DNA of 64,000 nt, taken from sequence record SRR2962707_3097. The stretch is one strand, 5' to 3'. This document shows, in pieces, positions 55,669-59,380 of this stretch. The notes below the pieces were generated by a model. That model saw nothing but the letters and a program-made list of their open reading frames with translations. It had not been told where the DNA came from and did no database searches. Position 1 is the stretch's first letter, and every line of letters starts with the position of its first letter. Both the position numbers and the translations under genes were made by a program.

Positions 55669-55905
55669 ATGGAACACCAAGCTGAATTGGACGCTACTGG
55701 GTTGTTATGCCCTGAACCTGTGATGATGCTGCATGTCGAGATGCGCAAATTGGCAGAAAAAAACATTTTAAAAGTGATTGCAACAGACCCTTCAACAACT
55801 CGAGATATCCCTAAGTTCTGTAACTTTTTAGGTCATACTTTGCTTGAGCAAGCGCAAGAGGGTGATACTTACTTTTATTGGATTCAAAAGAAAGCAAGCC
55901 AATAG
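55669..55905 (+). CDS. tusA: Sulfur carrier protein
   Basis: [28 protein letters not shown]. Confidence 0.95.
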
Positions 55906-55943
55906 GGCTTAAAAAGTCTGTCTTGAAAACAAGGATTTAACCC

Positions 55944-56008: not shown

Positions 56009-56602
56009 TTAGGCTACCTGCAATTTGCTTGGCGCGTGTACTTCACCCAATAAAGCGATTTTATAAATATTGCGGAAACTTGAAAAGGTAACATCGATGT
56101 CCAATTTTAATTGGCGCGCAATGTCGCTTGAAGAAATCAATCCACGAATCGTTTTGTTGTTCTCATCAATAACAAGAAGGTGCTGTAGCTCATTGGTTTT
56201 TTGGCTGTACAACAATGATTCAATGTCGGCATTTTTCAATGAGTTGTAAGACAGCGCCAATAGCGTTTCTTTTGGACGCATTAGGTCAGCAACCAAAAGT
56301 TCAGAGCGAGTAAAACCTTTTGCGACTTGCTTGATGAAAGCTTCTTCAGACAGGTCTTCTAACCCTACCACACCGACAAATGCGTTGTTGGCGTCTACCA
56401 CTACTTTCATGCGAACGTGCTCTTTTCTCATTAAGCGAACCAATTCGTCAGCACGAGTACTAGACTCAATAACACGAGGCGCCGCGGTTTTAAAATCTGT
56501 GAATACGCTTAATGCAGGAGAATATAGGTTGATATTCTCGATGGTTACAGGCCAAGTTAATGCATTAACGTCTTTAGTAGAAACATAAGTAAGTGTTTTC
56601 AT
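56009..56602 (-). CDS. Stand-alone CBS-pair protein
   Basis: SPALSVFTDF, HVRMKVVVD...FVGVV, VADLMRP, QHLLVID...IRGLISSSDI; GGAG RBS. Confidence 0.88.
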   Translation of the reverse strand: MKTLTYVSTKDVNALTWPVTIENINLYSPALSVFTDFKTAAPRVIESSTRADELVRLMRKEHVRMKVVVDANNAFVGVVGLEDLSEEAFIKQVAKGFTRSELLVADLMRPKETLLALSYNSLKNADIESLLYSQKTNELQHLLVIDENNKTIRGLISSSDIARQLKLDIDVTFSSFRNIYKIALLGEVHAPSKLQVA

Positions 56603-56659
56603 GATAGTTCTCCAAAAATAGATAAAAAAAGTAAATTGGTGAGTTATATCAAGAAAACA
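56594..56659 (-). promoter_or_regulatory. Predicted hairpin sequestering the SD and start codon of the CBS gene
   Basis: mRNA UGUUUUCUUGAUA (56659-56647) pairs 12/13 with UAUCAUGAAAACA (56606-56594, contains the AUG); CUC(AC)CAA can pair with UUGGAG (SD). Confidence 0.75.
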
Positions 56660-56949
56660 GGAGGGGCCCTTGGTTTGATTCTATCAGAAGGTGATGTGCT
56701 AATAGGATGACGGTAAAATGAAAACAGCTTGTTGTCTTTTTTAGTCGGCACTACTAATGAAAGGTATAATGCGACGTAGCTGTCATCTATTGGGTCAACA
56801 TCTAAATCAGGAATGGCGGCTTCACAGCATATCTGCCCAGTCGCTGGCACCCAGCGCTGTTTACTTTCTTCTTGTGCGTTCGCGCGTTGAGACAGGCTCA
56901 ACAAAGACGATGCGATAACGACAAGAATGATAAGTAGATGGAAGTTCAT
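56644..56949 (-). CDS. Putative secretion-monitoring leader / ribosome-arrest peptide (signal peptide + C-terminal RAPP)
   Basis: MNFHLLIILVVIASSLLSLSQRANA signal-like N-terminus, CC at 41-42, RAPP at 94-97 of 101 aa; alternative start at 57024. Confidence 0.7.
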   Translation of the reverse strand: MNFHLLIILVVIASSLLSLSQRANAQEESKQRWVPATGQICCEAAIPDLDVDPIDDSYVALYLSLVVPTKKDNKLFSFYRHPISTSPSDRIKPRAPPVFLI

Positions 56950-57173
56950 AAAACGCCTTAACTCATGATTTATATCATTAAATATATTCTTCTCCGGAAA
57001 TAAATCCAGCGTTTTTTGATACATGTCGCGTATTTACACTATCCAATATCTTTTTTTGGGATCTCGTTCACTATAAGGACGAAACAGGGACCTTTGCAGA
57101 CCAGTTTTAAAGCATTAGTAAGTGATGTGTGAGGGCGCTACATATATAAGAACCGCTTGCGCCGTCTTTCAAT

Positions 57174-57199
57174 AAAAAAGCACAGAAAATCTGTGCTTT
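57174..57199 (-). terminator. Intrinsic terminator of the MaoC gene
   Basis: AAAAAAGCACAGA-AAA-TCTGTGCTTT; separates the leader-CBS unit from upstream transcription. Confidence 0.8.
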
Positions 57200-57716: not shown

Positions 57717-58370
57717 ATGGTTAAGTTAGTGATTTTTGATTGGGATGGCACTCTTTTCGATTCCATTGCAGGAATTTGCAACAGTATGTTAGAAGCGGGG
57801 GCTCGCGTTGATGCGCCTAAAAGACATTTCGATGACATCAAGAACATCATAGGTTTGTCTCTAGATACGGCCGTTCAAACCGTGTGGCCAGAACTGGATG
57901 ACGCTCACCGAACTAGATTGACCGAGCATTATAAGCAGATTTACGTCGATCAAGACCAAACACCACCAAACGCTTACGATGGCGTTTTTGAGTTACTTGA
58001 AACATTACGCCAATCAGGTTTGGCCCTAGCTGTGGCCACCGGAAAAACTCGACGCGGTTTAAATCGAGTGATGGGGCTAACCAAAACCAACGATTTTTTT
58101 ACCACTTCTCGCTGTGCAGACGAGGCGCTTTCTAAGCCGCACCCTTTGATGCTGGAACAGATATTAGAAGAGCTCGAACTTACTCCCGATGACGCCATTA
58201 TGATCGGCGATACTGAATACGATTTGAACATGGCAACAAACGCAGGAATGCGCAGTGTCGGCGTCACCTATGGCGCCCATCATCAAGAGAGATTGCAGGC
58301 CTGTAACCCCCATGCCATCATTAATGATATTAGGCAGCTAACATCAATTTTAGGATTAACAAAGCAATGA
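57717..58370 (+). CDS. HAD-IA hydrolase (phosphoglycolate phosphatase-like)
   Basis: IFDWDGTL, ATGKTRRGL, SKPHP, MIGDTEYD. Confidence 0.92.
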   Translation: MVKLVIFDWDGTLFDSIAGICNSMLEAGARVDAPKRHFDDIKNIIGLSLDTAVQTVWPELDDAHRTRLTEHYKQIYVDQDQTPPNAYDGVFELLETLRQSGLALAVATGKTRRGLNRVMGLTKTNDFFTTSRCADEALSKPHPLMLEQILEELELTPDDAIMIGDTEYDLNMATNAGMRSVGVTYGAHHQERLQACNPHAIINDIRQLTSILGLTKQ

Positions 58371-59380
58371 GTTGGACCGAAGAACAAGACAAGCAAAATG
58401 CCCAAGACGCAGAACAAAATCCCGCGACAACACCAGATCCAGCGAATCAAGAAAAAGACAGCGATTCGAGACTCTGGCAGCTGTTGGAAAAAACACTGAA
58501 TGATACTGTGGTGGAAAAGCGTCGAGCGCGCCGCTGGAAAATCTTTTTCCGTTTTACCGGTTTACTCTTTGTGCTGGCTTTGATTGGCGCAGCACTAAGC
58601 CAGATGTCATTTGATACAACCCAATTAAATAAAGACACGGTTGCGGTTATTCCAATGCGAGGCGTAATTGGCAGCGGCGCAGAAATTGACGCATCTGAAT
58701 ATGTCGGCTTGTTGGATGAGGCGTACCGAAGCCATAACTTAACCGGCGTTGTGATTGAAATGAATAGCCCAGGTGGCAGTCCTGTTCATTCGGGCATTAT
58801 CTATGACGCCATTCGCCAAAAAGAAGCGCTTTACCCTAATGTCCCAGTCATTGTGGTGGTTGAAGACATGGCGGCCTCTGGCGGTTATTACATTGCGTCG
58901 GCGGCAAATGAAATTTACGCGGACAAAGCCAGTTTAGTAGGTTCCATTGGGGTTATTTCATCAGGCTGGGATGCCAGCAAGTTAATGGAGAAAATTGGTG
59001 TTGAGCGCCGCACGTTCACCGCAGGGCGAAATAAAGACTTCCTTGATCCTTTTGTGCCTATGAGTAAAGAGGGGAAAGAGAAATGGCAAGCGGTATTAGA
59101 TGAAACGCATCAGCAATTCATTCATGCGGTAGAAGTGGGTCGAGGCGACCGATTAAAAATCACAGATGATGTTTTCTCAGGAATGATCTTTACCGGCGTT
59201 CAAGCTCAGAAAATTGGATTGATTGATGGTTTATCCAGTGCGCATGACTTGTTAAAGACTCGTTTCCCGAATTCAACTCCAGTGGTCTATGCCCCTGAGC
59301 GCGATCCATGGGAAAAAGTCGCGAAAGAATTTGGCGTGCAATTCGCGGCTAAGATACTCAGCACAGTGACGCTGCAATAA
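58367..59380 (+). CDS. sppA: S49 signal peptide peptidase
   Basis: N-terminal TM, NSPGGSP, AASGGYYIA, GSIGVI. Confidence 0.92.
   Translation: MSWTEEQDKQNAQDAEQNPATTPDPANQEKDSDSRLWQLLEKTLNDTVVEKRRARRWKIFFRFTGLLFVLALIGAALSQMSFDTTQLNKDTVAVIPMRGVIGSGAEIDASEYVGLLDEAYRSHNLTGVVIEMNSPGGSPVHSGIIYDAIRQKEALYPNVPVIVVVEDMAASGGYYIASAANEIYADKASLVGSIGVISSGWDASKLMEKIGVERRTFTAGRNKDFLDPFVPMSKEGKEKWQAVLDETHQQFIHAVEVGRGDRLKITDDVFSGMIFTGVQAQKIGLIDGLSSAHDLLKTRFPNSTPVVYAPERDPWEKVAKEFGVQFAAKILSTVTLQ

Follow-up and report, generated by a model that had tools for sequence, protein, structure and literature searches.

A predicted hairpin connects the codons after a RAPP motif in a leader peptide with the start site of a CBS-domain gene in Marinomonas

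The minus strand of the DNA analyzed here, a stretch of 64,000 nucleotides (nt) from sequence record SRR2962707_3097 that we refer to as the window, carries a two-gene unit in which a leader open reading frame (ORF) is followed by a gene for a CBS-domain protein. The end of the leader and the beginning of the CBS gene read AGG GCC CCU CCU, the codons of an Arg-Ala-Pro-Pro (RAPP) motif, then GUU UUC UUG AUA and UAA, a spacer of 41 nt, and AUG AAA ACA (Table 1). The motif sits four codons ahead of the leader stop. The longest reading of the leader reaches an ATG at 57024; relatives begin at the MNFHLL/MKIQLL position. The leader has the properties by which RAPP/RGPP upstream ORFs (uORFs; Sakiyama 2021; Fujiwara 2024, 2025) are recognized, in that it is shorter than 300 amino acids, carries the motif near its C terminus, is co-directional with the next gene, and lies just upstream of it. 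Across 34 aligned leaders (29 congeneric loci, the window, and four added ones), the N terminus shows a hydrophobic core and an A-x-A-like site, as judged by eye. Neither Pfam nor NCBIfam returned a match for the leader.

Table 1. Features of the leader-CBS unit and its flanks, in window coordinates
Feature	Position	Strand	Basis
Leader ORF, 101 amino acids plus stop (MNFHLL...KPRAPPVFLI, stop)	56644..56949	-	ORF list, alignment of relatives
Signal-peptide-like N terminus of leader (MNFHLLIILVVIASSLLSLSQRANA, then QEES)	56875..56949	-	alignment of 34 leaders
RAPP codons AGG GCC CCU CCU (R 56670-56668, A 56667-56665, P 56664-56662, P 56661-56659)	56659..56670	-	read directly
VFLI tail codons of leader	56658-56647	-	read directly
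Leader stop codon UAA	56644..56646	-	read directly
Outer helix, 5' arm (UGUUUUCUUGAUA): last base of Pro codon 2 and VFLI codons	56647..56659	-	read directly, folds
Outer helix, 3' arm (UAUCAUGAAAACA), holding the CBS AUG (56602-56600)	56594..56606	-	read directly, folds
Inner helix, 5' strand (UC.CCAA), anti-Shine-Dalgarno directly past the stop	56636..56642	-	folds
Inner helix, 3' strand (UUGG.GA), with Shine-Dalgarno GGAG (56613-56610)	56609..56615	-	folds
U-rich loop, 20 nt, closed by the inner helix	56616..56635	-	read directly, fold
CBS gene, 197-amino-acid stand-alone CBS-pair protein	56009..56602	-	Pfam CBS, E 3.8e-11 (sole family match)
Terminator-like hairpin 3' of the MaoC-like gene upstream of the leader	57177..57199	-	pattern match only
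Terminator-like hairpin 3' of the CBS gene	55895..55911	-	pattern match only

An earlier note, made from the letters of the window alone, had proposed that the leader codons around and after the last Pro of RAPP pair at 12 of 13 positions with a segment covering the CBS start codon. Direct reading bears this out: U56659-A56647 and U56606-A56594 are complementary at 12 of 13 positions, and the single mismatch (U56652/U56601) falls on the U of the AUG. The bases past the leader stop had also been said to pair with the Shine-Dalgarno (SD) sequence and to close a U-rich loop, and the predicted fold contains exactly such an inner helix, in which U56642, C56641, and C56639-A56636 pair with U56615-G56612, G56610, and A56609. 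In ViennaRNA calculations, the hairpin is both the minimum free energy (MFE) and the centroid structure of a 77-nt stretch (−13.8 kcal/mol) and of a 121-nt stretch. In a 421-nt context running from the leader into the CBS gene, 11 of the 13 outer positions pair with probabilities of 0.91-0.997, the terminal U-A pair reaches 0.32, and the mismatch 0; the four SD bases are paired with probabilities of 0.90, 0.99, 0.40, and 0.95. The 77-nt stretch folds with a z score of −2.11 against its dinucleotide shuffles, of which 6 of 200 fold as well. A search of Rfam with E values up to 1 found no family at the hairpin. Taken together, the direct reading and the folds confirm the hairpin as a predicted sequence feature.

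Of 61 related genomes, 40 have the CBS protein; within the same genus, Marinomonas, the count is 33 of 37. A leader ORF ending in R[A/G/T]PP lies upstream in all 30 congeneric loci (27 RAPP, 2 RGPP, and 1 RTPP), with the motif 2-7 codons before the leader stop and 35-55 nt ahead of the CBS AUG. Leaders are mostly 89-105 amino acids long; the outliers are L014 (128 amino acids, its start most likely miscalled), L043 (117 amino acids), and L003 (94 amino acids, cut by a contig end). In the 34 aligned leaders the middle of the peptide diverges freely, while the signal-peptide-like beginning and (P)RAPP are conserved. A second CBS paralogue (approximately 40% identical, beginning MKTLDFYPTT), found in six Marinomonas genomes (L033-L038), lacks a RAPP leader in the 600 nt ahead of it. 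Only one orthologue group has the leader.

In the closer congeners, per-locus folds pair the post-RAPP codons with the AUG region in several versions. Leaders ending in VFLI use a GUUUUCUUGAUA arm with a U.U mismatch, those ending in FSLI use a UUUUCAUUGAUA arm with a bulged U, and the short leaders that stop after IS or VS pair (A/G)UUUCAUA(G/A)CG with CGUUAUGAAA (arms CAUAGCG/CGUUAUG); L007 and L011 present other versions of the arm. In the distant congeners L024 and L026-L030, the SD is paired instead, by the Pro codons together with a few bases that follow. The stem, for which a lack of conservation would have counted against the proposal in the earlier note, is kept through compensatory and alternative solutions.

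Selection on these bases was also assessed with an alignment-free test, in which synonymous codons replaced those of the two prolines, the tail, and the stop, and the cost of opening the region from SD to AUG was compared. In the first version (uniform codon choice, 300 recodings, fold from the Arg codon to +21, 34 loci), the native sequence exceeds the recoding mean in 33 of 34 loci and at least 97.5% of the recodings in 20 of 34. At the window locus, the native cost is 11.84 kcal/mol against a recoding mean of 6.4 kcal/mol (fraction 0.02). In the second version, where recodings were weighted by the codon usage of the window and the fold included 45 nt upstream and 33 nt downstream, the native sequence beats at least 95% of recodings in 15 of the 22 loci run, out of 32, and lies above the mean in 21. 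Moreover, of the 21 leaders with a terminal Ile, 15 encode it by AUA, a rare codon that makes up 13% of the 929 Ile codons in the long ORFs of the window. The advantage of native over recoded sequences and the excess of AUA suggest that the bases past the arrest point are selected as RNA.

Covariation was counted on a hand-set structure and was complemented by a covariance model and per-sequence folds. In a MAFFT alignment of 24 rows, 77.0% of the cells are paired, compared with 39-54% when the partners are slid; 5 of 16 pairs changed on both sides, and the covariation score of 0.151, versus 0.122 in shuffles, is reached by 0 of 500 of them. In the covariance-model alignment of 31 rows, 74.6% of the cells are paired (37-54% with slid partners), and two-sided changes occur in 12 of 16 pairs, a count reached by 0 of 500 shuffles; the sequences are related, and the figure from neither alignment is a probability. 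Covariation in orthologues, which the earlier note proposed as a check, is thus seen as a paired fraction above that of slid partners in both alignments and as two-sided changes in three-quarters of the pairs of the fitted one.

The published geometry of RAPP stalling (PMC10951233) puts the motif's first Pro codon in the P site, with the second in the A site (Table 1). With this placement, the outer 5' arm spans +5 to +17 from the first P-site base and is expected to lie mostly within the mRNA channel of a stalled ribosome, in agreement with the proposal that the arm begins in the last Pro codon and falls within the footprint. The effect of such a footprint was modeled by forcing positions −12 to +15 to be unpaired and measuring the free-energy cost of opening the region from SD to AUG. 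This cost falls from 11.84 to 3.58 kcal/mol when the fold extends to a 3' limit of +21, and from 10.82 to 5.38 kcal/mol when more CBS sequence is included (3' limit of +33). Protection limits of +11, +13, +15, and +17 leave 5.84, 5.49, 5.38, and 5.38 kcal/mol, respectively. The cost dropped with the footprint in 33 of 34 loci and in all 22 loci run with the wider context. In silico, then, a stem-loop masks the SD and the start codon and would be disrupted by a stalled ribosome. A ribosome placed on the leader stop codon leaves a cost of 5.65 kcal/mol, compared with 5.38 kcal/mol for the stalled one; since the two are equally effective, arrest would act by prolonging the time during which the arm is held open.

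The pairing of leader and CBS gene extends beyond the genus. An alignment of 13 CBS proteins retrieved 80 loci from a genome collection, and 68 of these have a leader ORF with R[AGST]PP at most 16 codons from its stop and at most 240 nt from the CBS start. The other 12 comprise two with RDPP, two whose RAPP leader ends 221-269 nt upstream, one with an in-frame stop (L056), and seven with none. RSPP and RDPP variants occur among these wider loci, and both are named as arrest-permissive in passages of PMC12992588. Altogether, the loci carrying the leader-CBS pair come from Marinomonas and no fewer than ten further gammaproteobacterial genera, among them Glaciecola, Paraglaciecola, Aliiglaciecola, Zhongshania, Saccharospirillum, Colwellia, Thalassotalea, Neptunomonas, and Oceanococcus. 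Outside Marinomonas the spacers measure 37-163 nt and contain inner stem-loops. The ensemble pairs at least 3.4 start-region bases with the post-RAPP segment in 23 of 27 loci, through widely differing sequences, such as CCUUCC with GGAAG in Paraglaciecola; this measure is without a null control and only descriptive, given that a folded stretch is prone to have its two ends paired with each other. In some of the more distant Marinomonas and in other genera, the SD finds its partner in the Pro codons themselves.

The combination of leader and CBS gene has already been catalogued. The source data of Fujiwara et al. 2025 (EMBO J; uORF_List_RAPP.csv, PMC12992588) contain a leader identical to that of the window and those of many congeners, upstream of a "CBS domain-containing protein." In the same work, this class holds 266 RAPP uORFs against 94 AAPP uORFs, an 11.1-fold enrichment (adjusted p 5.9e-103) that ranks twelfth of the 30 rows listed. 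The terms CBS, hairpin, and secondary structure each occur 0 times in its main text, and that text describes neither the hairpin nor a regulation of the CBS gene. A full-text literature search for CBS domains together with arrest peptides, or with RAPP and the ribosome, gave no paper on the leader-CBS system among the matches listed.

Several loci and segments of the leader deserve mention in their own right. In the Marinomonas loci L079 and L087 (upstream of position 900), the leaders end in ..SCRDPP.., and the Asp-Pro-Pro codons (GACCCACC) pair with the CBS SD region in the MFE fold. In Marinomonas rhodophyticola (L056:700-915), an in-frame TAA interrupts the leader midway (..SYVVLSFF, stop, KRAL..), but leaves RAPP, an FSSI tail, and the arm undamaged. 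The interruption may come from an assembly error; otherwise the locus represents a nonsense mutant that arose naturally, in which the CBS gene is predicted to stay masked. The mature part of the leader contains an acidic stretch, RW(L/V)(E/P)P..EQ..E..(V/I)PD(Q/L)D..(S/P)D (window 56875-56800, minus strand), which is loosely kept in most Marinomonas and could be the sensing part of the peptide.

No signal peptide or transmembrane segment was seen by eye in the CBS protein. NCBIfam holds no specific family for it, and a sequence search of the PDB gave CBSX2 as the best match (E 5.6e-5). The AlphaFold model has a mean predicted local distance difference test score of 79.7, its Foldseek matches are CBS-pair proteins and modules only, and in the ESM Atlas the protein falls among clusters named "CBS domain-containing protein." None of these four resources assigned a function to it. 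The CBS proteins end in ..L(R/Q)VA or ..VA, an ending kept in the window (56009-56023, minus strand) and in all 13 alignment rows. This ending resembles C-terminal degradation tags, and we presume on that ground that the protein might be short-lived.

The terminator-like hairpin upstream of the leader suggests that the leader-CBS pair is its own transcription unit. The CBS gene is the last gene of this unit, and a TusA gene converges on its end. A sigma-70 pattern scan of the minus strand upstream of the leader found no promoter-like site. In one study, two runs yielded RNA-library contigs that reach from 56028/56036 to 56962 and so contain the leader, the spacer, and nearly the whole CBS gene; they do not extend into the flanking genes, and no weight is given to the uncovered flanks. 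These contigs point to a discrete bicistronic RNA, as a weak hint only, because neither the ends nor the strand of a transcript can be read from contigs. Two additional runs, from two other studies, gave contigs over parts of the unit. One contig (run X6) ends at 56668, inside the Arg codon of RAPP, but contig ends prove nothing. In run X4, a gap at 56652-56663 between two contigs lies over RAPP codons and the arm. Approximately 1.3 kb upstream of the unit, on the opposite strand, lies a peptidase S49 gene (SppA-like signal peptide peptidase; window 58367-59380, plus strand).

We estimate at roughly 70% the probability that arrest at RAPP opens the hairpin and thereby switches on the CBS gene, that is, that the unit works as a SecM-type switch with a target outside the Sec system. 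In this mechanism, an exported leader of approximately 100 amino acids would arrest during translation at its C-terminal Arg-Ala-Pro-Pro. In the free mRNA, the five codons following RAPP would pair with the CBS AUG and the post-stop bases with the SD, so that CBS initiation would be kept low. A ribosome halted with the first Pro codon in its P site would keep most of the 5' arm inside its mRNA channel; with the outer helix blocked and the short inner helix weak alone, a second ribosome could start on the CBS gene. Arrest would presumably be relieved by pulling on the nascent chain once the signal peptide engages the Sec machinery, and the CBS protein would then rise when export, or an envelope state sensed by the leader, falters. 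The elements that this leader-peptide model needs at the level of sequence, namely, an R[A/G/T]PP uORF in every congeneric locus, the arm, the footprint effect, and the outcome of recoding, all hold.

A number of results weigh against this reading or limit it. The energy alone does not lift the fold above chance, either for the 77-nt stretch or for the 121-nt stretch (z = −0.59 for the latter, with 56 of 200 dinucleotide shuffles as good), and the case that the hairpin is more than chance rests for that reason on the orthologue comparison and the synonymous-recoding test. The coexistence of two registers of the 5' arm left RNAalifold without a consensus structure for the plain MAFFT alignment (24 loci). 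The better covariation counts come from the structure-fitted alignment, which leans toward the structure, and classical covariation has little room since the 3' arm (AUGAAAAC) is fixed by its coding and initiation role. Only 15 of 34 loci have the post-RAPP window as the leader's single best complement to the start region, where approximately 3 are expected by chance (an estimate from 31 eligible window starts among approximately 330); other leader windows, often near the leader's own start, score equally well in a pure duplex model. Congener L026 shows neither a footprint effect nor a synonymous signal, and in the wider context L002 (below the mean) and L022 (level with it) lose the synonymous signal. 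Outside the core genus, where 60 nt of upstream context was used and part of the loci had 40 instead of 80 variants, the synonymous test is mixed: the fraction is ≤0.05 in 12 of 27 loci, 0.06-0.125 in 7, and ≥0.3 in 8.

The freed start region is, furthermore, predicted to refold with CBS codons, and 3.6-5.4 kcal/mol remains to be paid. Behind this residual cost stand the inner helix and a weaker hairpin in which the SD is predicted to pair with CBS codons instead. The stall-dependent unmasking put forward in the earlier note is consequently upheld insofar as the footprint cuts the opening cost to roughly a half to a third, but a fully unmasked start would be too strong a claim; "unmasked" here means much easier to open, not free. 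The downstream gene, finally, is not a Sec or YidC component, and a feedback logic is not evident.

Plain translational coupling, in which any ribosome reading the end of the leader melts the arm and RAPP is a slow spot that tunes the ratio of the two products, with no regulated arrest or release, has a small but real chance of being correct. The arm lies entirely within leader codons, and the basis of this alternative is that a ribosome at the leader stop lowers the opening cost as much as a stalled one. Simple coupling, however, gives no role to the signal-peptide-like start or to the near-constant length of approximately 100 amino acids, and, although the remainder of the peptide drifts, all 30 congeners and many genera besides retain RAPP at the amino acid level with varied codons. 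In addition, passages of PMC12992588 describe RAPP/RGPP cores as causing robust arrest, refractory to elongation factor P, across varied N-terminal contexts in the peptides tested. The second alternative is a control of transcription, in which the arrested ribosome keeps Rho off the RNA, transcription can thereby run into the CBS gene, and the hairpin is secondary. The conserved pairing targets precisely the SD and the AUG, the synonymous-site selection favors masking of the start site, and the spacer is only 41 nt long and U-rich with 8 C, whereas a typical Rho loading site is longer and C-richer. We regard this explanation as improbable, even though it is the demonstrated mechanism of a RAPP uORF, CruR of Bordetella, according to PMC9426467.

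The complementarity could also be an incidental by-product of coding, with the VFLI/FSLI tail kept for protein function and MKT and the AU-rich spacer kept for initiation. The 3' arm is indeed invariant for reasons of its own, AU-rich sequence pairs easily, and the energy z scores are modest. Yet the tail past the arrest point varies (IS, VS, QA, ILS, KLL, and others) while other bases preserve the complementarity to the start region, the codons in use outperform synonymous alternatives for an identical peptide, and AUA dominates the terminal Ile codons; chance complementarity is on these grounds very unlikely. A structural RNA with another role, such as a transcript-end or processing signal, a protection against RNase, or a protein or small-RNA site in the U-rich loop, is barely credible. 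U-rich loops can bind S1 or Hfq, and the contig end within the Arg codon of RAPP could be counted in its favor if contig ends carried weight. On the other side, the 3' arm is not followed by a U-run, the hairpin is absent from the output of the terminator scan, Rfam has no family match, and RNA contigs from two runs pass through it.

Passages in the discussion of PMC12992588 leave open whether and how arrest controls downstream non-Sec genes, and for the CBS class, one of its larger ones (266 cases), the masking helix offers a concrete answer that can be tested by mutation. It also singles out, as what a leader sensitive to export or to the envelope would control, an uncharacterized CBS-pair protein of the cytoplasm, whose function is worth finding. 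A wider proposal, to which we give less than even odds, is that the pair may form a widespread envelope-to-cytoplasm module. An exported "test cargo" would report the state of export or of the envelope through its arrest, and the output, instead of further export machinery, would be a cytoplasmic CBS-pair regulator of the adenine-nucleotide type, a new class of output for monitoring substrates; the post-arrest codons would be selected as RNA and not as peptide, with the arrest codons themselves serving as anti-SD in some lineages.

Among known arrest peptides, the closest systems are SecM-secA of Escherichia coli, where a stem-loop likewise hides the SD and is disrupted by a stalled ribosome, and the further monitoring substrates MifM-yidC2 and VemP-secDF2. 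The geometry of secM-secA and mifM-yidC2, invoked in the earlier note, is matched in that the 5' arm of the masking stem would lie mostly within the footprint of a stalled ribosome; the match does not extend to the downstream gene, which encodes a cytoplasmic CBS-pair protein instead of a Sec or YidC component and provides no obvious feedback loop. The predicted outer helix also differs from the stem-loops of SecM, MifM, and VemP in covering the AUG itself and in being built from post-arrest codons. ApdA and ApdP, which lie upstream of secDF, share the RAPP core with the present leader and have a signal sequence, to which its signal-peptide-like N terminus may correspond. For uDF_RQH_Enterobacterales of Alteromonas naphthalenivorans, PMC10987492 reports stem mutations showing that the SD-masking stem-loop 2 mediates arrest-dependent induction. 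Apart from RAPP, no similarity in sequence between these peptides and the present leader was noticed, although no search aimed at it was made. ApdA, ApdP, and the RQH peptide regulate secDF, whereas the leader described here precedes a CBS gene. In this respect it resembles CruR (Bp2923) of Bordetella pertussis, an exported uORF before a non-Sec gene, with RAPP three residues from its end; passages of PMC9426467 describe CruR as acting through Rho-dependent termination and a CXXC copper sensor. The alignment of the present leaders contains no conserved Cys pair, and the leader, which has no Pfam or NCBIfam match, lacks the DUF2946/CXXC copper-sensor properties of CruR-type uORFs; what distinguishes the leader from CruR is, besides this, its 41-nt spacer and a helix that masks the start site of the gene that follows.

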